Shown here: positions 11,888 through 33,913 of the stretch, one piece after another | How positions within the stretch are numbered: position 1 is the first letter of the stretch | How the letters are laid out: each line of letters starts with the position of its first letter | Source of the DNA: a virus | DNA: 64,000 nucleotides | Virus record (IMG/VR): IMGVR_UViG_3300010885_023630 | Span: 32,001-96,000 of that record | Strand: one strand, 5' to 3' | Made by a program: the position numbers and the translations under genes | The notes under the pieces: generated by a model | Told to the model about the DNA's origin: nothing | The model's input: only the letters and a program-made list of their open reading frames with translations | Databases searched by the model: none

Positions 11888-13657
11888 ATGTTTAAAATAA
11901 AAACTCTAACGGTTAAAAACTTTATGAGTGTAGGCAATACTACACAAGCGGTTGATTTTGATCGACGTGACTTAACACTGGTTTTGGGCGAAAATTTAGA
12001 CTTAGGAGGAGACGACTCCGGCGCACGAAACGGTACAGGTAAAACAACTATTATCAACGCATTGAGCTATGCCCTGTACGGTAACGCCCTTACTAATATT
12101 AAAAAAGACAATTTGATCAATAAGACCAATACCAAAGGCATGATGGTTACTATTGATTTTGAAAAAGAAGGAGAATTATATCGTATTGAGCGTGGGCGTA
12201 AACCTAACATAATGAAATTTTGGGTCGGTGATAACGAAAAAGAAATCACTGATGACGCACAAGGTGACAGCAGAGAAACACAAGCAGACATTGAACGTAT
12301 GCTAGGCATGAGCCACGACATGTTCAAACATATTGTAGCTCTTAACACCTACACTGAACCTTTTCTTGCCCTTAAAGCAAACGATCAGCGTACCATCATT
12401 GAACAATTATTGGGCATTACACTACTAAGCGAAAAAGCCGATCGTCTTAAAGAACAAAACAAAGCAACTAAAGATGCTATTACACAAGAAGAGTTTCGTA
12501 TTAAAGCTGTTGGTGATGCCAACAAGCGTATTGAAGAACAAATCGAAGCACTTAAACGTAGACAAACAATGTGGATCAATAAACATGCTGAAGATACAGG
12601 GAAATTACAAACCGCTCTCAGTGAGCTACTCAAAATTGATATTGATGCGGAAATTGCGGCACACAAGGCTCTTGCTGAATATAAGTCAAAGAAGAAAGAT
12701 ATCACTGATTTATCATCCTATATTTCACGATGCGAACAGGACGAAGTACGTGAAAATCGGCTTATTGAAAAGCTCAGGAAAGACATTGCGGCACTCAAAG
12801 ACCATAAGTGTCACTCCTGCGGGCAAGATCTCCACGACGAAAAACACGAGTCTAATTTAACCAGCAAGAAAAAAGAGCTACAAGAAGCTGCATTACAAGC
12901 ACTATCTACAAACACGCAGTGGATGGAACTCACAGATGCGCTTAAAGAGCTAGGCGAGCTAGGCGTTAAACCAGAAACGTTTTACGACAAAGAAGAAGAT
13001 GCTATCCATCATCGTAGTACGTTAGCTAACTTACAGCAACAAATTGAAACCAAGTCCACAGAACAAGATCCGTACCAAGAACAAATTCAAGAAATGTCAG
13101 AACAGGCACTAGAGGAAATTAGCTTTGACCTTATTAATGAACTTACAAATGTCAAGGATCATCAAGAGTTCTTGTTAAAACTATTAACAAACAAGGATAG
13201 TTTTATCCGCAAACGAATTATTGATCAGAATTTAAGTTATTTAAATGCCCGCTTGGGACAATACCTGGACCGTATTGGCTTACCACACACAGTTAAGTTT
13301 AACAACGACTTGACTGTAGCCATTACAGAATTAGGTAGAGATCTAGACTTCGACAACTTGAGTCGTGGAGAACGTAACCGCTTGATTTTATCCTTGAGTT
13401 GGGCGTTCCGCGATGTTTGGGAAAGCCTATATCAACCCATTAACTTGTTGTTCATTGACGAGTTAGTAGACAGCGGTATGGATAGTTCCGGAGTTGAAAA
13501 CTCTTTAGCTATCCTAAAAAAGATGAGTCGTGAAGCTAACAAGTCAATTTGGTTAGTGTCACACAAGGATGAGCTAGCGGGTCGTGTCAACAATACACTA
13601 CACGTAGTTAAAGAAAATGGATTTACAAGTTACAACACCGACGTCGACATTGCTTAA
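11888..13657 (+). CDS. gp46: Recombination ATPase subunit (Rad50/SbcC-like)
   Basis: Walker A NGTGKTT, zinc hook CHSC, signature LSRGE, Walker B LLFIDE, SH loop. Confidence 0.93.
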   Translation: MFKIKTLTVKNFMSVGNTTQAVDFDRRDLTLVLGENLDLGGDDSGARNGTGKTTIINALSYALYGNALTNIKKDNLINKTNTKGMMVTIDFEKEGELYRIERGRKPNIMKFWVGDNEKEITDDAQGDSRETQADIERMLGMSHDMFKHIVALNTYTEPFLALKANDQRTIIEQLLGITLLSEKADRLKEQNKATKDAITQEEFRIKAVGDANKRIEEQIEALKRRQTMWINKHAEDTGKLQTALSELLKIDIDAEIAAHKALAEYKSKKKDITDLSSYISRCEQDEVRENRLIEKLRKDIAALKDHKCHSCGQDLHDEKHESNLTSKKKELQEAALQALSTNTQWMELTDALKELGELGVKPETFYDKEEDAIHHRSTLANLQQQIETKSTEQDPYQEQIQEMSEQALEEISFDLINELTNVKDHQEFLLKLLTNKDSFIRKRIIDQNLSYLNARLGQYLDRIGLPHTVKFNNDLTVAITELGRDLDFDNLSRGERNRLILSLSWAFRDVWESLYQPINLLFIDELVDSGMDSSGVENSLAILKKMSREANKSIWLVSHKDELAGRVNNTLHVVKENGFTSYNTDVDIA

Positions 13658-14609
13658 TTATCGACGCATTCATATTGAGTTGAGCAGTAAGTGTACATTA
13701 AAGTGTCCGCGCTGTCCGCGAACGGAGTTACAGCCCGAACAACTTAACAGAGAAATTAGTTTGTTTGAGTTTCAACGTGCGTTTAGTTCTGACATACTTA
13801 AAGACATACAGGAAATAACATTCTGTGGTGATGTAGGAGATCCTATATATGCTCGAGACTTTTTACGTATTGTAGAATATATCAAGAAGTCGCGTTTTAA
13901 TATCAGTTTGATTATTGTTACTAACGGTAGTTACAAATCTGAGCTGTGGTGGCAAGAGTTGGGTATGTACCTGCGTTACAATGATAAAGTTACGTTTAGT
14001 GTGGATGGGTGGGATCAAGTCAGCAACGAACAATATCGTGTCAATTCGGACTTTGATAGTATAGTTGCTGGCGCTCGTGCGTTGAGAAAAGTAACTCGAG
14101 CGCAGATGAATTGGTCTGCTATCTATTTTAAATTTAACGAAAGTAAAATGCACTGGATACAGGACCTCGCACGTGATTTGGGGTTCGATACCTTTGAGTC
14201 TGTGCTAAGTTCAAAAGTTGATGGTAGATATTTAATCAACGGAGTAGATCCACTAAAGCCATCCAATGGCTACGTTGCTGGTACTAGCCGGTACGAAGTT
14301 AAAACAGAAAAACTTAATGGCAAGGTACCTATTGTATTTTACGACAAGGTAGATCGTCATCCCTGGGCCAAATGTATGAACTGGGAAAAGGAAATGTTTA
14401 TTAATGTAGACGGATTGGTATTTCCTTGTCCCTGGTTTAATAGTGGCTACTTAGAAAACGATTTTGTAGATAAGCATAGAGATAAAATTAATATTAAAAC
14501 TAGAACACTAAAAGAAATCTTAGCAGATCCTCTGTGGGAAGAACTACACACACGATTTGCTGTGGGCCCATTAGAGATTTGTCGATTAAAATGCGAGAGC
14601 TGTCAATGA
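13650..14609 (+). CDS. Radical SAM enzyme with C-terminal SPASM/twitch domain
   Basis: CTLKCPRC motif; C-terminal C...INVDGLVFPC...CRLKC. Start uncertain (TTG 13650 or ATG 13617). Confidence 0.85.
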   Translation: MLNYRRIHIELSSKCTLKCPRCPRTELQPEQLNREISLFEFQRAFSSDILKDIQEITFCGDVGDPIYARDFLRIVEYIKKSRFNISLIIVTNGSYKSELWWQELGMYLRYNDKVTFSVDGWDQVSNEQYRVNSDFDSIVAGARALRKVTRAQMNWSAIYFKFNESKMHWIQDLARDLGFDTFESVLSSKVDGRYLINGVDPLKPSNGYVAGTSRYEVKTEKLNGKVPIVFYDKVDRHPWAKCMNWEKEMFINVDGLVFPCPWFNSGYLENDFVDKHRDKINIKTRTLKEILADPLWEELHTRFAVGPLEICRLKCESCQ

Positions 14610-15865
14610 GTAATGTATTTTGTAATATTCCTTGGGTAGAAGTCCATATCAATGCAGATGGGACTTACCATACCTGCGGCGCACAAACCAATCGTATCAG
14701 TGGCACAGAAGAAGCTAAACTGTACAATGTACACAACATGACTATTCCTGCGTGGATCAACAGCGAGCATCAGCGCAGGGCTAGGATTAATAAACTTAAT
14801 AACATACCTGAGTCTGCTTGTGCTATGTGTTATCACGAAGAAAGTTTAGGTAGTAGTAGTAAGCGAGTTAAAGAAAATTTAAAAAGCGGCATTACTGAAA
14901 ACAATTTTGAACTTACATTTATACACAGTAAAGACTATCCCTTGTTTGATTATTCGGCACGTAACAAAGGCTTAACTGATTTTGATCGTCCTACCAGCTA
15001 TCATTTAAGTTTAGGTAACGAATGTAATTTGGCCTGTAAAATGTGTGGGCCTACTGCTAGTAGTCGACTGGCTGTACAAATGATCAAAGAAGGTACATAT
15101 TCTGGCCCGGCACGTATGAACTGGACCGAAGACGAAACAGCGTGGAATCACGTAGTAGACTACATTTGCACTACCGAAAACCTAAAGTTTGTACACCTAA
15201 TAGGCGGGGAACCATTGATGAATCCTCGCTTCGAACAGTTGATAGATAGGCTTTTAGCAGCCAAAAAGACAGATATTTACTTAGGGTTTACTACCAACGG
15301 CACTATGTTTAACCACAATTTAATGACTAAATTATCGGCATTTAGGCACGTAGATGTAGGAGTTAGCATAGAGTGTTGGGGCGAATTAAACGACCTAGTA
15401 AGGCAAGGTTCTACTACACAAACCGTGCTAGATAACATAGATCAGTACTTGAAATACCGTCGACAGGCACACATTTACGTTACGCTACGGGCAGTACCTA
15501 GCGCACTTACAGTACACACGCTAGACGAATTGTATAAGTGGTGTATTACTCGCGAGCTAGATGTGGTAACTAATATATTGGTAGAACCCGAATATCAACA
15601 GATATCGCAACTACCAAAAGAAATTAAAGAACGGTTAATAGCACGTTATGAGCTATGGCAACATAGCGAGCCAGCACCTGCTGACAGTAATCCTAGAGAC
15701 CCAACTTGGTTTAAACAACATATCGATAACGAAATTATGGCAATCATCATGGCACTCAAACAAGAACCCGAACACAATTTAACTGATGAACTTTACGATA
15801 AACTTGAACTTTGGGGTTGGTTTGACCACCCAGAGGTGAAAAAATATTTCTTCATATGCGATTAA
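14606..15865 (+). CDS. Radical SAM enzyme with N-terminal twitch/SPASM domain
   Basis: N-terminal CNIPW...DG.YHTC...CAMC, then CNLACKMC, GGEP and TTNGT. ATGA overlap with the upstream gene. Confidence 0.85.
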   Translation: MSNVFCNIPWVEVHINADGTYHTCGAQTNRISGTEEAKLYNVHNMTIPAWINSEHQRRARINKLNNIPESACAMCYHEESLGSSSKRVKENLKSGITENNFELTFIHSKDYPLFDYSARNKGLTDFDRPTSYHLSLGNECNLACKMCGPTASSRLAVQMIKEGTYSGPARMNWTEDETAWNHVVDYICTTENLKFVHLIGGEPLMNPRFEQLIDRLLAAKKTDIYLGFTTNGTMFNHNLMTKLSAFRHVDVGVSIECWGELNDLVRQGSTTQTVLDNIDQYLKYRRQAHIYVTLRAVPSALTVHTLDELYKWCITRELDVVTNILVEPEYQQISQLPKEIKERLIARYELWQHSEPAPADSNPRDPTWFKQHIDNEIMAIIMALKQEPEHNLTDELYDKLELWGWFDHPEVKKYFFICD

Positions 15866-15879
15866 GATAACTAGTATGC

Positions 15880-16308
15880 ATGACTTGGCTTTACGAAACT
15901 TCCACTATAGAAACCTTACCAGAGGACTGTATCGGATTTGTTTATTTGATTACAAATAACATTTCTGGCAGGAAGTATATTGGAAAAAAATTAGCCAAGT
16001 TTAGTAAAACAACATACAAAGTAGTTAAATTAAAAAACGGCAAGAAGAAGCGTAAAAAAATCAAAGGCAAAATTGACTCTGATTGGCAAACCTATTACGG
16101 CTCAAATATTGAACTCAATCGAGACGTAACAGCATTAGGCGAGGAAAACTTTACAAGAGAAATATTATTCTACTGTAAAAGCAAAGCAGAATGTAGTTAC
16201 ATTGAAGCAAGAGAACAATTTTCACACAAAGTGTTAGAATCTGACGACTATTATAACGGACATATACAAGTCCGTGTACATGGCTCTCATATTAAAAACA
16301 AACTCTGA
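15880..16308 (+). CDS. Stand-alone GIY-YIG (Seg-like) nuclease with a Lys-rich insert
   Basis: GFVYLITN...KYIGKK, W..YYGS, IEARE and YYNG motifs; no C-terminal DNA-binding domain. Confidence 0.8.
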   Translation: MTWLYETSTIETLPEDCIGFVYLITNNISGRKYIGKKLAKFSKTTYKVVKLKNGKKKRKKIKGKIDSDWQTYYGSNIELNRDVTALGEENFTREILFYCKSKAECSYIEAREQFSHKVLESDDYYNGHIQVRVHGSHIKNKL

Positions 16309-16330
16309 CATAAAGTCATTTCCCATTATA

Positions 16331-16700
16331 CAGTAGTAGGCTAGCGCAGGCTAAACTTCATGCGCCTATGACAACAGGACCTCGGGTCGCTGGGACGGAA
16401 ATCTCTTTGCTGTAAAAGAGTGCTTAACCACTATCCTTAACAGGACGAGGATCGCTAATTGCCGCGGTTTGGTTATTTGAAGAAATGAATAAGGCTGAAA
16501 AGACGCTCAAGCGATTGAGCACGGTTAATGCGTATGTTAGCGTATATGTATTAATCCGCCGTTGTAAAGACACAACTCGAGGTACCGGACAACCGCCTCT
16601 GTAATGTTGTAACGCTAAGTGACTGTGCTACTCGGATAATGCTACAGAACAATCTTTGCCCTTGAGCGGGCAAAGTGTGACCAATTAATCTGGATAATAC
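16331..16700 (+). ncRNA. Candidate large structured non-coding RNA (unassigned family)
   Basis: ORF-free, with consecutive stems: 16344-48/16361-65, 16375-81/16385-92, 16403-08/16415-20, 16425-30/16470-75, 16505-10/16515-20 (GCGA loop), 16523-36/16543-56, 16579-82/16596-99, 16654-61/16668-75. Loop 16537-43 is complementary to 16612-18. Boundaries are approximate. Confidence 0.65.
16619..16698 (+). repeat. Duplicated bipartite motif GTGAC-N9-YGGATAAT (period 58 nt)
   Basis: GTGAC tgtgctact CGGATAAT (16619-16640) and GTGAC caattaatc TGGATAAT (16677-16698). Confidence 0.75.
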
Positions 16701-16732
16701 TAAAAAACAACAATATTAAATCAAAGAAAAAA

Positions 16733-16836
16733 TGTTGTGAGCGTAAGCGAAACAACAGACTTACGTAGTAAGTCTTAAATGAATCATACAATCACAGAGA
16801 TACTTAATATGTTCCTTGCGAACATATGATTCATTT
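16733..16836. other. Cluster of inverted repeats / hairpins at a convergent gene junction
   Basis: TGTTG..GC-GTAA-GC..CAACA (16733-57), AGACTTAC-GTA-GTAAGTCT (16757-75), and AAATGAATCA...TGATTCATTT enclosing or competing with ATATGTTC-N5-GAACATAT. Confidence 0.6.
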
Positions 16837-16854
16837 TCTTAGATAAACACTAGA

Positions 16855-17088
16855 TTATTTGTTTTTCCAGATGCCATATAGAACCCAAATTGCTACGAGT
16901 CCTACTAGTCCTTGACTACCAATTGCGGCAATGATTGAAGTAACATTTGCTGTTACGGATACTGCCGGGAAGAATGGTATTGCCATACCCTTGAATAAAA
17001 TTTCTAATACAATAGCTAGGGCTATAATGCTTACACCCACATCTGCTAATGTGTTAGACCATTTCTTAATTTGAGTTAAGATTTCCAT
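16855..17088 (-). CDS. Small two-TM membrane protein (late-expressed)
   Basis: Two hydrophobic segments; strong AAGGAG RBS; late promoter at 17130-17135. Confidence 0.75.
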   Translation of the reverse strand: MEILTQIKKWSNTLADVGVSIIALAIVLEILFKGMAIPFFPAVSVTANVTSIIAAIGSQGLVGLVAIWVLYGIWKNK

Positions 17089-17201
17089 TTTACGTCTCCT
17101 TTTAAAAACCAGTATTGCTACCGGTAAGTTATTTAGGTACCGGTTTGCAAAAATAGTAAGCTATTATTATACTTTTAACTAAGATGATACTTATTGTACC
17201 T

Positions 17202-17429
17202 CTAGAAAAATGGTAAACCTGACTCTTTAGTGGTTTCCATATTCTTTTTAATGATGTCTTTGATAAGGTCTCGTTCTTGATCGGACAACATTAACGCATC
17301 GTCATAGCTTAACCCGCCACGCATGTGCCAGCTAAAACTTAATGCTTCGTGTCTTATGGCTTTTGACTCTGAATCAAATTTATTTAGATACTCAACCACA
17401 CCCTCGCGGTCAAGAGTCAAAAGCCTCAT
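17202..17429 (-). CDS. gp51: Baseplate hub assembly protein gp51-like
   Basis: WHMRGGLSYDDALMLS..ER motif; ATGA-coupled to gp26. Confidence 0.55.
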   Translation of the reverse strand: MRLLTLDREGVVEYLNKFDSESKAIRHEALSFSWHMRGGLSYDDALMLSDQERDLIKDIIKKNMETTKESGLPFF

Positions 17430-18265
17430 GCGAAAAAACTTGCGTAATTAAAATCCAACGGAACATCGTATGCGTGTTCACATTTAGTACACTTTGCGTT
17501 AACAGGTTTAACACTAGCAGATTGGTTAATTACAGTTAAACGCTTTTGTATTTCTTTCATTACCTTGTAGTCAGACATATCAAAGTATTCTTTGATAAAC
17601 GCAGGGTCCGTAACAACTACACCTTCTTCTGTTGTGATTGAGCGTGTGCTACTGGCGCAAATTTCAATGTTTAAATCCACTAACTTTTTTAAGTATGCGT
17701 CGGATTTTGATTTCTTTTCTTCGTCTGGGATAGCGTCGTCGGTAACTGTGCGTAATATTTGCTGTTCTGTAAAAGCAATTTGATTTACGCGATTAACTTC
17801 AAAATATGGTTGTGGGCGTAGTACAATTTTTAAACCGTCGAACTCAACTGGGGTTTCATAATCGGGCATGGCAATTTGATCTACTAGACTGCTTAATGCT
17901 ACACCAAACCTGTTGTCTTCTTCACAAGCAGGACAAACACTATCAAATTCCATTTCAGCGCCGTAACTGGCGATGCGTATGTTTAGCAAAATAACGTCTA
18001 CGTCGATACTAGGCATTGACCACGCATCTTTAATGTTTGGGCAACAGCTTTGTATAACATCGACTACACCTTGTCCGTTCATTAGTGCGTCTGGTGTACG
18101 AATAGTAATTTCGTCACGAGCTGTCATTGGATACACAGGAATTTCCCCAGTAACTGGTAAGTCTAAACTACCCTCGGGCCAGAATCTGCCGTTTGATGGT
18201 AGTTTAATATAAGTTGCTGGCTGTCTAAAGTGTTTGAACAGCGGATTATTTGGTTTTTGTTCCAT
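17426..18265 (-). CDS. gp26: Baseplate hub assembly protein gp26-like
   Basis: PVYPMTARDE, DVDVILLNIRIASYG, two CxxC pairs, C-terminal SFFA. Confidence 0.8.
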   Translation of the reverse strand: MEQKPNNPLFKHFRQPATYIKLPSNGRFWPEGSLDLPVTGEIPVYPMTARDEITIRTPDALMNGQGVVDVIQSCCPNIKDAWSMPSIDVDVILLNIRIASYGAEMEFDSVCPACEEDNRFGVALSSLVDQIAMPDYETPVEFDGLKIVLRPQPYFEVNRVNQIAFTEQQILRTVTDDAIPDEEKKSKSDAYLKKLVDLNIEICASSTRSITTEEGVVVTDPAFIKEYFDMSDYKVMKEIQKRLTVINQSASVKPVNAKCTKCEHAYDVPLDFNYASFFA

Positions 18266-18277
18266 TTTTTTATCCCA

Positions 18278-18307
18278 TAAATATAATTGAAGGTTACTGT
18301 ATATTTA
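18278..18307. promoter_or_regulatory. Face-to-face late promoters for tape measure (+, 18278-83) and gp26 (-, 18302-07)
   Basis: TAAATA on both strands within a 55-nt intergenic gap; palindrome TTTACCGGTAAA at 18304-15. Confidence 0.6.
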
Positions 18308-18320
18308 CCGGTAAAAAACC

Positions 18321-20903
18321 ATGTCAGAAAATAACGAAGATCCACAAGACGCCGCTAGACGCAACGAAAATCTCAGAGACTATAACAAGCTCATGGGCGA
18401 TTTTATACGCGACCTAGAGGATCGCATGACGCTTGAGGAAAAACAAGCACGTCAACTTAAAAGTACACAAGAACGTTTTAAGGATTTAGATGCAGCCTTA
18501 AAGACAGGCCAACGTAAAACTATTGACCTTACAAAAGATTTTAGAAGTCTACAAGCGGCCATTAACCAGCTGGAAGACGGAGCTGAAAAACAAGCATTAC
18601 AACAAAAACTTGATGTAGATGCCGCCAAAGCTCGTAGAGCAGTAGTAACTAAAGCCGCTATAGATACAGCAGAAGCTGGAGCTAAAGCATTATACGGCGG
18701 AGCAGTTAATACAGCCAAGGCAGTATCACAAGCATACATGAGTAATGCTAGTGCGTTTACTACTGCTGGAGCAGTTATTAACGCAGGACTAGAAGCCAGT
18801 GCTCAAGCAGTTGGTGGTGCCACTGCTGCAATTGGTACCATGGCTGTTGGACTTGGCGCATTAGCTGGACCTGGTGGAGCAATTGCCGGAGCATTGGTTG
18901 CTGGTATATCTTCACTATTTGGATCAATTTATAAACAAAGTATTGACTTGGCAAAACAGGCCACTAGCTTGGCTGTGGCTGAAATGGAAAACACCATCAA
19001 GTCCTACACCACAGCCAGCAAGGCTGGAGCATTATTTGCCGACGGACTAACCGGATTGCGTAGAGCCGCCAAAGCCGCAGGATTAGATCAACAACAGTAT
19101 GCCAATGTGTTGGCACAAACAACTCCAATGTTGGCACAGTTTGGCGGAAGTGTTACACAGGGTGTAGCAAGATTTACTTCTATCAGCGGCATAATGAATA
19201 AACAGTTTGCCCCAGGGCTGTTAAAACTTGGATACAGCATAGATGAAATTGCTGCCGGTACTGCTGACTATTTGGGATTCTTGGGTCGTTACGATTTGGC
19301 CAAAGGAAAAACAGACGCTCAGTTAGCCACAGAGAGCGACAAGTATCTGACCAACTTAAAAGCTATTAGTGCGTACACAGGCGAGCAGGCAGGGCAGGCT
19401 AAAAAACGTGCCGAGGCAGAACTTGATCAGATGGCAGTGCAGGCCCGGTTACAAGACATAGCAAGAGCGTCCGGACAGAGTCTGTCAGAAGTCAACATAA
19501 AATACGAAAACTTATTAAAAACATTTGGTCCCGGTAGTGAAAAAATTGCCAGCCAGATGCTAACTCTAGGAACAACTACAGGTGATTTGGCTATAGTTAC
19601 AGCACAAGTTCCAGCATATATGGAGCTGATGCAAAAATCTCAAGAGTTACTGTCTAATAAAAATATTGATCAAAGTGCAGTAATAACAGAAATAACAAAA
19701 TTACAAAAACAATATGCTCCATTAATACAAGAACAAACAATAGCAACTGGTAGAAGCATTGGTATTGCCAATCAAGCAAACGCATCATACGGTGAAGTTA
19801 ATCGAACCATTGGCGGAATAAACAGAGATTCTAATAAATGGGGCAAAGCCACAGCTACCGCAATTGAGGATGCTAAGAAAACTAAAACTACTCAAGATAC
19901 GCTAACAAAGGAGTATGTTGAGGCTACCATTGAATTTCAAAAGATGCGTCTTGAAATTCAAGCTAAGTTAACCCCGGCTATTACAGGATTTGCAAAAGTA
20001 ACAAAAGATGTTATTATAGAATTAGAAAAAATAATAGCAAAAATGCCAGGCATGGCTGAAATGATGCTTCCGGAACCAGGTGCAGCAGTTGTGTCTGGTG
20101 ACGCAGTTATAGAAAAATACGACAAAGATAAAAATGCCCCGGGTAGACCCAAAGACTGGGATAAGATGAGCTCGGAAGATAAACGGCATATTGGGGAAGC
20201 TCACGCTGGCGTCGAAACACAGCAGAATGGTTTAGCACAAAAAAATCTACGACAAAAAGCTAGAGCTACTGCCAACCTGGCAAAAAGGGATAACACCGAT
20301 AAAGAAGGATTTATTTCTAAATTGCCGGGGCTGAACTACCCTGAAGATAAAGTTGGAAAAGGTATACAAGCATCACTGTATGATCTTTTATTAACACCTC
20401 CTTTATTTGGCAGACAACTTACTAGTTTATATCGAGCCGGGGATACTGGAGCACACGGACAAGGTAAAGGCGCAGATGTTTCTATTATGGGTCTTGACGG
20501 TCAACCTATGTCAGCAAAAGCTATTTCGGACTTGGTAATGCAAATTAAATCAGCAGGTGCTGTTAAAGTATTTGCGGAATCCAAACCAAATGATCAAGAA
20601 TGGTTGGATTCAATTTCCGCTGTCCCCGGGGGATTGGGAGCGTCTGGTATATTAGCTAACCCAGGCGCAACCGGTCGTCATATTCACTTAGAAGCCAAGA
20701 AATTTGGTGGACAAATGGGAGCCAATGACACTACCATTGTTGGCGAATCTGGTCCGGAGATTATTTCGGGTGCGGGTGTAGCAACATCTACAGCAAGTAC
20801 AAGTGCGGTGTTTGCTGAACTTAATCGAAATATGAAAGAATTGGTTGAGGTATCTAAAGATAATCGAGATTATTCGAAAAAGATCTTACAAGCTACCGCA
20901 TAA
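18321..20903 (+). CDS. Tape-measure-like protein with C-terminal M15/LAS-type peptidase motif
   Basis: Long Ala-rich helical protein with a hydrophobic Gly/Ala segment; C-terminal TSLYR..GAHGQGKGADV...RHIHLE; next to gp26/gp51. Confidence 0.65.
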   Translation: MSENNEDPQDAARRNENLRDYNKLMGDFIRDLEDRMTLEEKQARQLKSTQERFKDLDAALKTGQRKTIDLTKDFRSLQAAINQLEDGAEKQALQQKLDVDAAKARRAVVTKAAIDTAEAGAKALYGGAVNTAKAVSQAYMSNASAFTTAGAVINAGLEASAQAVGGATAAIGTMAVGLGALAGPGGAIAGALVAGISSLFGSIYKQSIDLAKQATSLAVAEMENTIKSYTTASKAGALFADGLTGLRRAAKAAGLDQQQYANVLAQTTPMLAQFGGSVTQGVARFTSISGIMNKQFAPGLLKLGYSIDEIAAGTADYLGFLGRYDLAKGKTDAQLATESDKYLTNLKAISAYTGEQAGQAKKRAEAELDQMAVQARLQDIARASGQSLSEVNIKYENLLKTFGPGSEKIASQMLTLGTTTGDLAIVTAQVPAYMELMQKSQELLSNKNIDQSAVITEITKLQKQYAPLIQEQTIATGRSIGIANQANASYGEVNRTIGGINRDSNKWGKATATAIEDAKKTKTTQDTLTKEYVEATIEFQKMRLEIQAKLTPAITGFAKVTKDVIIELEKIIAKMPGMAEMMLPEPGAAVVSGDAVIEKYDKDKNAPGRPKDWDKMSSEDKRHIGEAHAGVETQQNGLAQKNLRQKARATANLAKRDNTDKEGFISKLPGLNYPEDKVGKGIQASLYDLLLTPPLFGRQLTSLYRAGDTGAHGQGKGADVSIMGLDGQPMSAKAISDLVMQIKSAGAVKVFAESKPNDQEWLDSISAVPGGLGASGILANPGATGRHIHLEAKKFGGQMGANDTTIVGESGPEIISGAGVATSTASTSAVFAELNRNMKELVEVSKDNRDYSKKILQATA

Positions 20904-20936
20904 CATACGGTAAATATAGCATAACAGAGAACATCT

Positions 20937-22634
20937 ATGGCCGGTTGGAAAAAATACTTTAAAACTAGTAACTTACCTAGCAACATTAGTCCCCTAGGCG
21001 GCGGTCGTGCGCCTGATCCTGGATATCGCAATTATCAGAGTCAGTTGCCTGAAGTTTATACAGGGCAACCAAATCGTGTTGAGCGTTACAATCAATATGA
21101 ACAAATGGACATGGATTCAGAAGTAAATGCCGCATTAGATATTTTGGCAGAATTCTGTACTCAAAAGAATGTTGAAAATCACACAGCGTTTACTGTTAAG
21201 TTTAAAGACACACCAAGCGACAACGAAGTTAAGATTATTAAAGAACAGCTACAACAATGGGTAGCACTCAACGAATTTAACAAACGTATCTTTAAAATTG
21301 TACGTAATGTATTCAAATATGGTGATCAGGTGTTTATCCGTGACCCAGAAAACTTTAAACTATACTGGACAGAAATGTCTAAGGTTACCAAAGTTATTGT
21401 TAACGAAGGCGAAGGTAAAAAGCCCGAACAGTATTTGATCAAAGATTTAAACCCTAACTTTCAAAACTTAACAGTTACAGCAGTGGCTACAACAGACACT
21501 TATACGAATCACCCACAGGTTGGTGGTCCAAGTGGTAGCTATACACAACCACAAAGCCCGTTTGGTGGTGGTAGCCGTTTTAGCCATGCCAAGAACGAAG
21601 CGGCTATCAATGCCGAACACGTAATTCATGTATCGTTAACTGAAGGCCTAGATGTATATTGGCCATTTGGTAACTCAGTATTAGAAAACATCTTTAAAGT
21701 ATTCAAACAAAAAGAGCTGTTGGAAGATAGTATCATTATATATCGTGTACAACGTGCTCCGGAACGTCGTATCTTTAAGATTGATGTGGGCAACATGCCA
21801 AGTCATATGGCCATGGCATTTGTTGAACGCATTAAAAATGAAATTCACCAACGCCGTATTCCTACACAAACAGGTAACGGACAAGGCAATATGATGGATG
21901 CTACATACAATCCGTTAAGTACAAACGAAGATTACTTCTTCCCAACTACAGCAGACGGACGTGGAAGTAGCGTTGATGTGTTACCGGGTGGCGCTAACCT
22001 GGGTGAAATTACAGACTTGCGCTTCTTTACCAACAAGTTGTTCCGTGGTTTGCGTATTCCAAGTAGCTATTTGCCTACCACAGCAGAAGATGGCACAGCT
22101 GCCTATACAGACGGTCGTGTTGGTACAGCACTGATACAAGAATGGCGCTTTAATCAATATTGCCAACGTTTACAAAGTTTAATTGCTGACAAGTTAGACG
22201 CAGAGTTTAAATTGTTTATGCGTTGGAGAGGTTTCAACATTGATAGTAGTTTGTTTGAATTGTCATTCAATGAGCCACAAAACTTTGCCCAATATCGTCA
22301 AGCAGACATTGATGCCGCACGTATTGGTACATTTACACAGCTAGAACCATATGCGTTTTTAAGCAAACGTTTCTTAATGAAACGTTATTTGGGAATGACC
22401 GAGCAAGAAATTAGTGAAAATGAAACAATGTGGGCCGAAGAGCGTGGCGATAATGAATTATCACAACCCGGTGCTGCAAACCCACGTAGCGTGGGCATTA
22501 GCCCAGGCGGCATTGATGCTGACTTAGAAGGACTGGCTCCAGATGTAGGCGCTGAAGACGGTGGTGTAGGTGGTGCTCCGGAATCTGTTGCTCCGGGAGC
22601 CGCAGGTGCAGTTGGCGCAACGCCAGCACTTTAA
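20937..22634 (+). CDS. gp20: Portal vertex protein
   Basis: LLEDSIIIYRVQRAPERRIFKIDVGNMP, EDYFFP...GRGSSVDVLPGG, LRIPSSYL. Confidence 0.95.
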   Translation: MAGWKKYFKTSNLPSNISPLGGGRAPDPGYRNYQSQLPEVYTGQPNRVERYNQYEQMDMDSEVNAALDILAEFCTQKNVENHTAFTVKFKDTPSDNEVKIIKEQLQQWVALNEFNKRIFKIVRNVFKYGDQVFIRDPENFKLYWTEMSKVTKVIVNEGEGKKPEQYLIKDLNPNFQNLTVTAVATTDTYTNHPQVGGPSGSYTQPQSPFGGGSRFSHAKNEAAINAEHVIHVSLTEGLDVYWPFGNSVLENIFKVFKQKELLEDSIIIYRVQRAPERRIFKIDVGNMPSHMAMAFVERIKNEIHQRRIPTQTGNGQGNMMDATYNPLSTNEDYFFPTTADGRGSSVDVLPGGANLGEITDLRFFTNKLFRGLRIPSSYLPTTAEDGTAAYTDGRVGTALIQEWRFNQYCQRLQSLIADKLDAEFKLFMRWRGFNIDSSLFELSFNEPQNFAQYRQADIDAARIGTFTQLEPYAFLSKRFLMKRYLGMTEQEISENETMWAEERGDNELSQPGAANPRSVGISPGGIDADLEGLAPDVGAEDGGVGGAPESVAPGAAGAVGATPAL

Positions 22635-31945: not shown

Positions 31946-33913
31946 ATGGCAATCGGACGCATTACCGGACCAATGCTATACGGCAACCTGGAACGTCAGG
32001 GTGTTGATTTAGCGATAGACGGAAATTTAGTTTACGCTGACGTAACTAATCGCCGTGTTGGTATTAATACATCCTCTCCTCAGTACGCACTAGATGTCCT
32101 TGGAAACGCTCATATAGGTAATCTATATGTTCAAGGTAATCAATTAACTAGCGACACAGGGATAATCAACTTTGGATTACCTGCTAATATTTCGTTAGCT
32201 GGAGGAACCCCGTACGATGTGTTGTACACAGACGGAAATGGAAATTTAGCATTTGCCAACTTAAACGTAATTTCGGGATTAGATGCGTTTACCGGTAATA
32301 ATATTATCTTAGGATCTAATACAGCCGGTTATATGGTAAGTAATGCTGTAACACTTACTACTAATACAACAGTGACAGACGGATTAGCACAGATAAACTA
32401 TGTACTAGGTAAACTAGTACCACCAAGCCCTCCACCGTTCCCTGGAGCAAACACACTGGCATTAACAACTAGTACCACTTCGGCCTACATGACTAATTAT
32501 GTACAGCCAGATAATTCTGGATGGGGTAATTTAAGTATAGCCGCTGGTGCCGCAGTTAACGCGGTGCGTACAACCACATACGCAACAGGTACAACTATCA
32601 GCGCAGTTGGACCGGGTAACATGGGTACTGTAACAGCATATCTCAACGGCAGAGATGCCGGCAACGTAACCTTAACTGGAACCAGCAGTGGAACATATAG
32701 CAATTTAATTATAGCCAACAACCAAGATTACCACAATGTGGTCAGCACAGTTACGGCCGGTTTCTGGTATAGTTTTGATGCCAGGGCGGCAGGTAATGCG
32801 CCAACTGGTTGGAACAGAGTACACATCAGAGATTCGGGAACAGGTGGCAATACCAACGTAGTAACTTGGTTTTACGATTCGGCTGCTCCAGGAACACCAA
32901 CATTTAGTAATACCAGCATATCGTTAACAACAAATACAGTTACATATTCTAGCACTATACCAATGTTAACCAGTGGTGCTCAGGCAACGCTTAAAGGTAA
33001 TGTGGCGGTACTAAGCGGCAATACCTATCCACAATCAACAAACCTAACATCATCTACAGCTGCAGGTGGTGCGTTTCAAGCACCAACATCTGTAACGTAT
33101 GCCGCTGCCGGTATAACAACACCATTGGCACAAAATTTATATGTAAGCTCAGGTAGCGCATATTTCCAAACAACTTCTAGTATTATCGCATCTGGGTTTG
33201 GGTCAAGTCCCACAGGTCCTTCACTAACAGTTAATAACAGCTACAATACCGGCTCGGCAACATTTAGCCCTGGGGTAACAATACTATATAAAAATGGTAC
33301 TGGTAATAACATTGAAGAAACTAGTATTCCTGTAACCAGTGTGGGCACAGGATCTGGCAATGCTTACCGTATTGTAAATCCTGGTTCAAGCGACACTCCT
33401 GCGTATACAGGAAGCGAAGCGGCATTTAATAGTACAACAGGACCTTTCTACACATACGACGCAACCAACGTAGCCGCAACAATAAAATTTGATCAAACAA
33501 ATTATTCAACTGGGTATTGGCCCGTCGGCCCTAACTTGTCCGCACAAGCGGCCAGTCAGTACTTTACATTTAAGTTTGTGCGTACGGCTGTTAGTAAATT
33601 TAATATTTCCTGGACCGGCACTATTGCCGGCCTATGGGTGGCATTACCTGGACAAAGTAATACCTATTCTGGACTTAACGGATGGTATACTATGAGTAGT
33701 CCTTACGCAGGCTCTGGAATCCCGGGAACAGTTGGCGGTAACGGAAGCAACGGATGTAGTGTGGGCGGATTTAGTTTAACTGGCGGTAGCTACACAGCAA
33801 CATTTGGTACGCTAAGTTCCAGTAACGCAACCGGCAATGAAATTTATGTAAGAATTAAATTAACAAGTGGACAAAGTATTTCTGCTTTAAGCATAGTGGC
33901 GGCAACTAACTAA
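31946..33913 (+). CDS. Tail fibre/structural protein
   Basis: RVGINTSSPQYALDV fibre motif; Thr/Ser/Gly/Asn-rich. Confidence 0.7.
   Translation: MAIGRITGPMLYGNLERQGVDLAIDGNLVYADVTNRRVGINTSSPQYALDVLGNAHIGNLYVQGNQLTSDTGIINFGLPANISLAGGTPYDVLYTDGNGNLAFANLNVISGLDAFTGNNIILGSNTAGYMVSNAVTLTTNTTVTDGLAQINYVLGKLVPPSPPPFPGANTLALTTSTTSAYMTNYVQPDNSGWGNLSIAAGAAVNAVRTTTYATGTTISAVGPGNMGTVTAYLNGRDAGNVTLTGTSSGTYSNLIIANNQDYHNVVSTVTAGFWYSFDARAAGNAPTGWNRVHIRDSGTGGNTNVVTWFYDSAAPGTPTFSNTSISLTTNTVTYSSTIPMLTSGAQATLKGNVAVLSGNTYPQSTNLTSSTAAGGAFQAPTSVTYAAAGITTPLAQNLYVSSGSAYFQTTSSIIASGFGSSPTGPSLTVNNSYNTGSATFSPGVTILYKNGTGNNIEETSIPVTSVGTGSGNAYRIVNPGSSDTPAYTGSEAAFNSTTGPFYTYDATNVAATIKFDQTNYSTGYWPVGPNLSAQAASQYFTFKFVRTAVSKFNISWTGTIAGLWVALPGQSNTYSGLNGWYTMSSPYAGSGIPGTVGGNGSNGCSVGGFSLTGGSYTATFGTLSSSNATGNEIYVRIKLTSGQSISALSIVAATN

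Follow-up and report, generated by a model that had tools for sequence, protein, structure and literature searches.

Two units of a large structured RNA from uncultured lake phages carry the same 7-nucleotide word

Several kinds of RNA present short recognition sites in a fixed setting. Box C/D RNAs are marked by box C (RUGAUGA), box D (CUGA) and a kink-turn with tandem G-A pairs; in the bridge RNA of IS110 elements, a short matched core is common to two loops of the same molecule; and the repeats of type III antitoxin RNA (ToxI) follow the specificity of their protein. A further RNA, Polynucleobacter-1 (Rfam RF01718), is an orphan motif from Burkholderiales and fresh water: its entry in Weinberg et al. 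(2010, Genome Biol 11:R31, PMC2864571) rates it a likely RNA, likely cis-regulatory, and gives no function. In the part of the literature covered here, that motif was the only description of the RNA found, and the topics of GIY-YIG proteins with RNA-guided systems and of structured phage RNAs gave nothing. Here we analyze a 64,000-nucleotide (nt) stretch of viral DNA (the window: positions 32,001 to 96,000 of IMG/VR record IMGVR_UViG_3300010885_023630, which is 127 kb long and judged 36% complete), in which an initial annotation had noticed two boxes of the form GTGAC-N9-YGGATAAT. The boxes belong to the 3' part of one structured RNA of ~450 nt that is common among uncultured T4-like lake phages; the Polynucleobacter-1 model covers the first third of this RNA, and the boxes lie 140 nt beyond the model's end (16478). 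Each box contains a 7-nt word, and selection keeps this word letter-for-letter equal in the two units while it differs between phages.

Two sister units and their matched word

Both boxes are present as first described (all features are on the plus strand of the window unless stated otherwise). Box 1 consists of GTGAC (16619-16623), the segment N9-1 (TGTGCTACT, 16624-16632) and CGGATAAT (16633-16640); box 2, offset by 58 nt, consists of GTGAC (16677-16681), N9-2 (CAATTAATC, 16682-16690) and TGGATAAT (16691-16698). Between them stands the perfect hairpin that had been claimed (16654-16675), with arms CTTTGCCC (16654-16661) and GGGCAAAG (16668-16675), 8 bp and the 6-nt loop TTGAGC. Read as RNA, unit 1 (16619-16647) is composed of GUGAC, a variable segment, A-CUC, the word and G, and unit 2 (16677-16699) of GUGAC, a variable segment, A-UCU, the word and A; the word, GGAUAAU in both, occupies 16634-16640 and 16692-16698. 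The exact box pattern is found nowhere else in the window. With up to two mismatches there are four matches against 2.47 expected from shuffles, and 23 of 100 shuffles reach four (not significant): the loose pattern alone is no rarer than chance, and the pair is accepted as real because it is conserved.

Relatives – metagenomic contigs throughout, aligned with MAFFT – were retrieved by a pattern from the 5' motif, which gave 119 viral contigs and a set of 120 loci. A profile of the region 3' of the motif made 85 matches in 84 of the 120, with 55 distinct loci at 100 bits or more; 17 tested loci among those unmatched, in which RF01718 found nothing, fit the pattern by chance. Rarer words were sought in four targeted scans, which yielded 217 candidate contigs, 109 of them confirmed as this RNA and representing five distinct 12-mer unit pairs. 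In relatives the twin units stand at a constant distance 3' of the Polynucleobacter-1 motif. The duplication noted at the outset is kept in homologues, where two sister units flank a conserved hairpin, and the count of two also holds: there are exactly two in every full locus read.

The word has the core x1-x2-A-U-x4-A-x5 (overall R-N-A-U-R-A-W). Eight forms occur in the first set (GGAUAAU, AGAUAAU, GCAUAAU, GAAUAAU, GGAUGAU, AGAUGAU, GGAUGAA and AGAUGAA), and the rarer-word scans added ACAUAAU and GAAUGAU, matched in both units, for a total of ten. The word is identical in both boxes of all 49 loci scored and of all five further distinct pairs. Scoring took 49 of the 55 distinct loci, the other six not fitting the regular expression, which required C/T at each position from -3 to -1 and G/A at +8. 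Four loci (L012, L035, L005 and L052; L-numbers denote individual loci) have A in place of the pyrimidine before the word and carry, by eye, AGGAUAAU in both units; two in which one box only was detected (L091 and L038) were left unscored for identity. Mutual information links the two copies position by position: 16634 with 16692 (GG 34, AA 20), 16635 with 16693 (GG 42, CC 11, AA 1), 16638 with 16696 (AA 45, GG 9) and 16640 with 16698 (TT 50, AA 4). Matched words extend to distant relatives (GGAAAAU twice in L118, AGAUGAA twice in L083), while in L060 and L032 the two words differ solely by G/A at the first letter. Between close relatives (L094 and L078; L020 and L111), a G/A difference is present in both boxes at once. 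On a tree of the 3' domain computed without the words there are at least 13 word changes per box, equal in count in each (x1 6, x2 3, x4 4, x5 2).

The flanks of the word differ in a fixed manner, within the letters that the regular expression admits at these places: CUC always precedes it in unit 1 and UCU always in unit 2, and the next letter after it is G in unit 1 and A in unit 2 for 35 of the 36 distinct pairs. Such differences would not have survived simple gene conversion, which is therefore not the source of the identity. When RNA segments covary, the usual cause is that they are complementary; the two distant segments in question covary by being identical, across all of the changes counted on the tree, and such covariation calls for a mechanism that compares two sequences or reads them alike.

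Outside the word the units resemble each other only in part. They are alike from 6 nt before the word through 3 nt after it, and only ~17 nt are alike per unit of 50-58 nt; each begins directly after a helix strand ending in AAG. The hairpin between the units is 87.5% paired, with two of its eight pairs changed on both sides (in a MAFFT alignment with some rows off by one column), and takes forms such as CUUCGCCC/GGGCGAAG and CUUAACCC/GGGUUAAG in relatives. In many relatives a small UUCG hairpin follows unit 2, parallel to the GC-rich hairpin after unit 1; the window's lineage is without it. Since a hairpin follows each unit in many relatives, the layout is that of an old tandem duplication, and the two boxes are sister units of this duplication in the 3' domain of the RNA.

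In the window, the C of GTGAC and the first four nt of N9-1 are predicted to pair with 16643-16647 (CUGUG/UACAG, 16623-16627 with 16643-16647). The corresponding stem is UGAC/GUCA in most relatives, UGAAC/GUUCA in L041, UGGCU/AGCUA in L094 and UGGA/UCCA in L040, and the native partners score 4.56 against 4.13 for swapped ones, with 4 of 2000 permutations as high. These figures support, and because the rows are related do not prove, a placement of word 1 in a large hairpin loop that would be closed by the GUGAC region. Two other pairings did no better than swapped controls and were rejected: an extended hairpin joining the bases behind box 1 to the GUGAC of unit 2 (1111 of 2000 permutations as high), and another that would close unit 2 (500 of 2000).

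The initial annotation had viewed the boxes as fixed and the N9 segments as variable. The second part stands, since across 49 loci unit 2 shows 15 distinct 6-mers; the first falls, as the 3' box varies too, in its 7-nt word. The last three nt of each N9 are part of the conserved A-CUC or A-UCU element, and in 23 of 49 loci, the window's own lineage not included, the two variable segments are mutually complementary (UGUUCG/UGAACG type). These data bear on the proposal that the N9 segments, or the words, guide the neighboring nuclease in dual-guide style. The nuclease, a SegE-type GIY-YIG protein of 142 amino acids (aa), is encoded directly upstream of the RNA (15880-16308; Pfam SegE_GIY-YIG, 5.7e-32). 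Its nuclease domain is minimal and bears a very basic insert, in 52 of 55 distinct loci the family's gene stops beside the start of the RNA (the exceptions are L033, with the gene 1.8 kb upstream, and L003 and L078, with another open reading frame (ORF) at the RNA start), and the same protein occurs with differing N segments and words (L001 versus L094), as reprogramming would permit. However, the loci with GIY-YIG beside the RNA are one syntenic region of related phages, and the adjacency is therefore ordinary synteny. Homologues of the protein occur in 511 cultured-phage records, and in the three inspected (Melnitz, P-HM1 and phiM12) the next gene follows 150 nt or less behind the GIY-YIG gene, which leaves no room for such an RNA. 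Part of N9-1 is stem, the variable segments pair with each other as described, and no targets were found in the 127-kb genome, where adjacent matches to both 9-mers do not exceed chance. Variability of the N segments by itself does not exclude a guide role; the role is simply unsupported, and we give it a very slim chance. The GIY-YIG gene is treated here as the context of the RNA and as a candidate partner at most.

Candidate readers of the word

We consider it about an even chance (a probability of roughly 0.5) that one reader outside the RNA is shared by the two words, which would serve as its twin display sites. One partner, present twice or binding alternately, would read both words alike, each from a unit with the anatomy 5' GUGAC, variable segment, A-YYY, 7-nt word, purine, linker and hairpin. 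The identity of the words at a fixed register, together with flanking differences that exchange purine for purine or pyrimidine for pyrimidine, fits two sites read alike by one partner; the fixed differences between the units are all transitions, which a common complement containing G and U could tolerate, and the G/A differences between the two words of L060 and L032 belong to this type as well. The units may also be tandem binding sites, the second option offered in the initial annotation. As to the nature of a shared reader, we tentatively favor a nucleic acid that base-pairs with the words through a strand U-word'-GGG-U, which would fit both units by G-C and G-U pairs, two G-U in each; were such a strand to pair with both words, the RNA would be a natural two-site programmable binder and its reader a new kind of short programmable recognition. 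A dimeric protein is our second choice, and an unlikely one. We also find unlikely the idea that the word is a freely re-writable address carried twice, whose copies would either zip like with like or both pair with one outside strand.

Where the reader might be encoded is constrained by one locus, L094. It is 99.2% identical to the window over 4.6 kb (12127-16704), and identical as far as ~16616 including the nuclease gene, departing at unit 1 into another RNA 3' domain, the word AGAUGAA and unrelated downstream DNA; a recombination joint thus falls within the part of the RNA that is conserved best. As the identity runs through the nuclease and the first 295 nt of the RNA while the words are others, the reader is not in that upstream part, and as the same nuclease goes with other words, the nuclease does not co-evolve with the word. 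The partner would be encoded outside the first 295 nt of the RNA and outside the 4.5 kb upstream.

A number of results count against a shared outside reader. Mutual information detects no Watson-Crick covarying column for the word in the RNA; complementary sites do not recur within 1.5 kb or anywhere in the fetched loci; a strand fitting both units (Y-ATTATCC-RRR-T) is matched in the 127-kb genome, a record 36% complete, only by the boxes' own antisense; and the genome's own word is not enriched there. The 17 transfer RNAs (tRNAs) of the record offer only short matches to the word, which fall in the invariant T-loop and are unable to follow changes of the word. No protein columns track the word cleanly in the GIY-YIG, gp46-like, small minus-strand or hub proteins, a weak test. 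In the word itself, x1 and x4 are only purines in confirmed copies, x3 is only U in confirmed rarer-word copies, and pyrimidines at x1 and x4 were met in 2 and 6 pattern matches, none of them confirmed as this RNA. A restriction of x1 and x4 to purines is not predicted by free guide-target evolution. The finding of transitions alone is partly imposed by the regular expression, and loci of the L012 type, L118 and L083 show transversions at the flanks. One locus, L049, has two unlike words. Finally, only 10 of 42 inner branches of the tree are well supported, and on these there are only two independent pairs (sign test, p 0.5).

The same evidence can be turned toward the RNA itself, with the two words touching each other like with like, for example through parallel-stranded homo-pairs (G-G, A-A, C-C, U-U), such that identity is itself what is selected. 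This would account for identity rather than complementarity at a constant register, and for a partner found neither in the RNA nor in the flanks, fetched loci or 127-kb genome; in the L094 mosaic, the words move with the 3' domain as one block. The fixed flank differences, purine versus purine or pyrimidine versus pyrimidine, also fit such contact, and therefore do not separate it from a shared reader. It does not predict, however, the fixed G versus A at +8 beside strict identity at x1, the unlike words of L049 speak against it as well, and we know of no natural RNA example of a like-with-like parallel helix of this sort. We regard word-word contact as distinctly unlikely; if it did occur, it would amount to a new RNA structural principle.

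Alternatively, the boxes may act as DNA, as iteron-like or recombination-type sites with a matching core, for example at an RNA-primed origin near the baseplate genes. A 7-bp core that is free yet matched between direct repeats is reminiscent of the overlap regions in sites of site-specific recombination, T4 origin E has iterons near baseplate genes, and the minus strand of unit 2, TTATCCAGA, is one mismatch from a DnaA box. Against this, the match to the DnaA box is broken by word variants; the words stand 47 to 58 nt apart, with all three classes modulo 3 represented and no helical phasing; the units are set between helices with covariation of the RNA type, including G-U pairs on one strand only; and the 127-kb record contains neither further box copies nor an IS110-type recombinase. 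A role at the level of DNA thus has a slim chance. Should the reader prove to be neither a nucleic acid nor the second word, there is still a sizeable orphan phage RNA with an incomplete catalogue entry, common in uncultured T4-like lake phages and two thirds outside Rfam.

The surrounding RNA, its distribution and genomic setting

The full-length RNA, a twin-box form of Polynucleobacter-1, is a conserved block in the MAFFT alignments at ~16328-16775 (ends approximate), with a minimum free energy z-score of -3.31. Its 5' domain (16339-16478) matches RF01718 with 102.5 bits against a gathering score of 37, over model positions 1-141 of 141, and this is the sole Rfam family matched in the whole window. 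Mutual information retrieves the Rfam helices of the 5' domain and adds a leader pairing of 16330 with 16413 (AT 26, GC 20). There follow a GNRA hairpin, GCUCAA-GCGA-UUGAGC (16505-16520), whose pair 16506-16519 is GC 40, CG 7, GT 4, TA 3 and AA 1, and a long hairpin (16523-16556) with covarying stem pairs from 16526-16553 through 16533-16546. The loop of the latter (16537-16544) pairs with 16611-16618, just ahead of box 1; the pseudoknot strand that had been placed there is borne out by covariation at 16537-16618, 16541-16614 (CG 34/TA 21) and 16542-16613 (GC 37/AT 14/other 4). Between the two strands lies a knotted core (16561-16610), supported by pairing and covariation, in which helix 16561-16565/16589-16593 crosses helices 16572-16576/16606-16610 and 16579-16582/16596-16599. 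In alignment A2 these three helices are 96.7, 95.3 and 100% paired, with changes on both sides in 9 of 14 pairs; with the hairpin between the boxes included, the figures are 93.6% paired, versus 82.1% in shuffles and 40-54% when slid, and 11 of 22 pairs changed on both sides. RNAalifold on MAFFT alignment A1 gave only 2 pairs and was set aside. A coding role for a 39-aa ORF at 16485-16604 was likewise rejected, as stops interrupt it in L004 and L066. A natural deletion form is found in L046 (~200-330 of the oriented segment), which lacks the knotted core, unit 1 and the middle hairpin, so that the long-hairpin loop runs directly into unit 2.

Beyond unit 2 the sequence forms GUUGU-GAGC(GUAA)GCGAA-ACAAC (16734-16756), a conserved hairpin with a GNRA loop and tandem G-A, which in relatives has GUAA, GAAA, GCAA or GUGA loops and covarying outer stems. 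A terminal hairpin (16757-16775), with stems that covary in relatives, is the probable 3' end of the RNA. A weak hint of expression comes from RNA-library contigs of relatives, possibly DNA (X16, X17 and X20), which lie on 15836-16714 with none on 16740-17200, unlike contigs of DNA run X1, which span the whole stretch of 15836-17200. In many relatives a late promoter of the TATAAATA type and then a new gene lie beyond the terminal hairpin; in nine loci (L024, L075, L014, L043, L002, L019, L020, L111 and L031), TATAAATA or a close variant stands 20-60 nt past it. The genes after this promoter are variable and their products begin M-K/R-I-x-Q/E-L/I-L/I-x-E, a start that looks similar to the signal by which T4 internal head proteins are targeted to the capsid; a gene of this kind is absent from the window at this place.

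Searches elsewhere returned few copies. A blastn comparison of the RNA with 50,697 phage records found nothing real in cultured phages; RF01718 and the RNA model R1 have no match in 121Q, RaK2 and GAP32, nor in Melnitz, where the best E for R1 is 0.8. Among bacterial genomes, one of 18 pattern matches contained the RNA, and this was a 2.4-kb contig of an uncultured bin.

The window has the character of a T4-like phage, with portal gp20, a baseplate hub protein and an SbcC-like gp46. The twin boxes lie inside the largest gene-free gap of the region (16309-16854), whose neighbors in Pfam and PHROG annotation are GIY-YIG, radical SAM, SbcC-like and baseplate genes; the next plus-strand gene beyond the RNA is 1.5 kb away. 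The basic insert of the GIY-YIG protein, KLKNGKKKRKKIKGK, follows the YIG motif. Cultured-phage homologues of the protein are widely labeled 'NAD synthetase', apparently a misnomer passed from record to record. Between the gp46-like and GIY-YIG genes lie two adjacent radical SAM/SPASM genes (330 and 443 aa; 13617-15865), the second with a faint QueE-like PHROG match (E 0.0007). On the minus strand, the RNA is separated from the baseplate genes by a 77-aa ORF (16855-17088) that has no Pfam or PHROG match and that most relatives lack. The 17 tRNA genes are clustered near the end of the viral record (120387-126533), outside the window.

Comparison with known systems

Conventional signals do not explain the boxes. 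A scan for a sigma-70 promoter or plus-strand terminator at 16619-16698 gives none, and GTGACC and GATAAT are just 10 nt apart, where sigma-70 hexamers would be spaced by 16-18 nt. Set against their consensus sequences, a kink-turn, the 11-nt tetraloop receptor, a CsrA (GGA) site, a T4 late promoter and a DnaA box each fail on word variants or spacing. Both hairpins are called as terminator-like on the minus strand, a feature that relatives, by eye, do not keep. Pairing of box 1 with box 2, or of the self-complementary AUCU-RGAU within unit 2, is broken by GCA and GAA words without compensation (by hand). Coding through the boxes was also rejected: word offsets fall in all three frames, and GUG-to-UAA mini-ORFs are in frame only in some lineages (by eye). 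A sense codon plus stop (GGA-UAA), as in translational bypassing, was rejected because no ORF enters the boxes and L118, L032 and L060 are without the stop.

Like box C/D RNAs and TIGR-Tas arrays, the RNA has two short units with conserved flanks around variable segments, set about one unit length apart. Unlike them, it has a would-be box that varies and no more than two units, which are built into a 450-nt fold. No Rfam C/D family is matched at E up to 1 in 12000-22000, and the words GCAUAAU, ACAUAAU and GAAUAAU are without the G-A. The absence of a Nop-domain protein noted for the window extends to the 127-kb record, 36% complete, in which neither Nop (PF01798) nor L7Ae (PF01248) genes have a match (0 each, controls positive). 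A TIGR-Tas array, which would be a tandem series of many units with hypervariable spacer pairs, is rejected in that every full locus has exactly two units and the stretch between is a conserved hairpin; a CRISPR mini-array, which would have identical repeats flanking a variable spacer, in that unit 1 and unit 2 have unlike variable segments and CUC versus UCU, and that the 'spacer' would be the same conserved hairpin. The likeness to IS110 bridge RNA lies in two sites of one RNA with a short matched core. Here, however, there are no element ends, the matched part is 7 nt, no target or donor was found (complements of neither the words nor the N9 segments stand out in flanks or genome), and the IS110 recombinase (PF01548) has 0 matches in the 127-kb record.

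A further comparison is with regulatory small RNAs with duplicated seeds and with ToxI repeats, in which one recognition sequence is shown twice in one RNA for one partner; in contrast to these, the locus has no toxin gene beside it and no target mRNA was found, only the ~17 nt described are alike per unit, and a knotted 5' domain of 295 nt precedes the units. Polynucleobacter-1 shares the fresh-water habitat as well as the match of the 5' 140 nt to its model, with no function given in its entry (PMC2864571). The knotted core, both units and the tail (~300 nt) lie outside that model, and whereas the entry rates the motif likely cis-regulatory, the RNA described here ends in its own hairpin with the next same-strand gene 1.5 kb off. 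Finally, GOLLD and ROOL are, like this RNA, large, pseudoknotted, GNRA-rich phage RNAs without known function, and GOLLD and ROOL are reported to form homo-oligomers (10.1101/2024.12.08.627333). The RNA analyzed here has no Rfam match to either and is smaller, and while multimer contacts of the GOLLD and ROOL kind would give complementary covariation, the covariation of its two words is one of identity.

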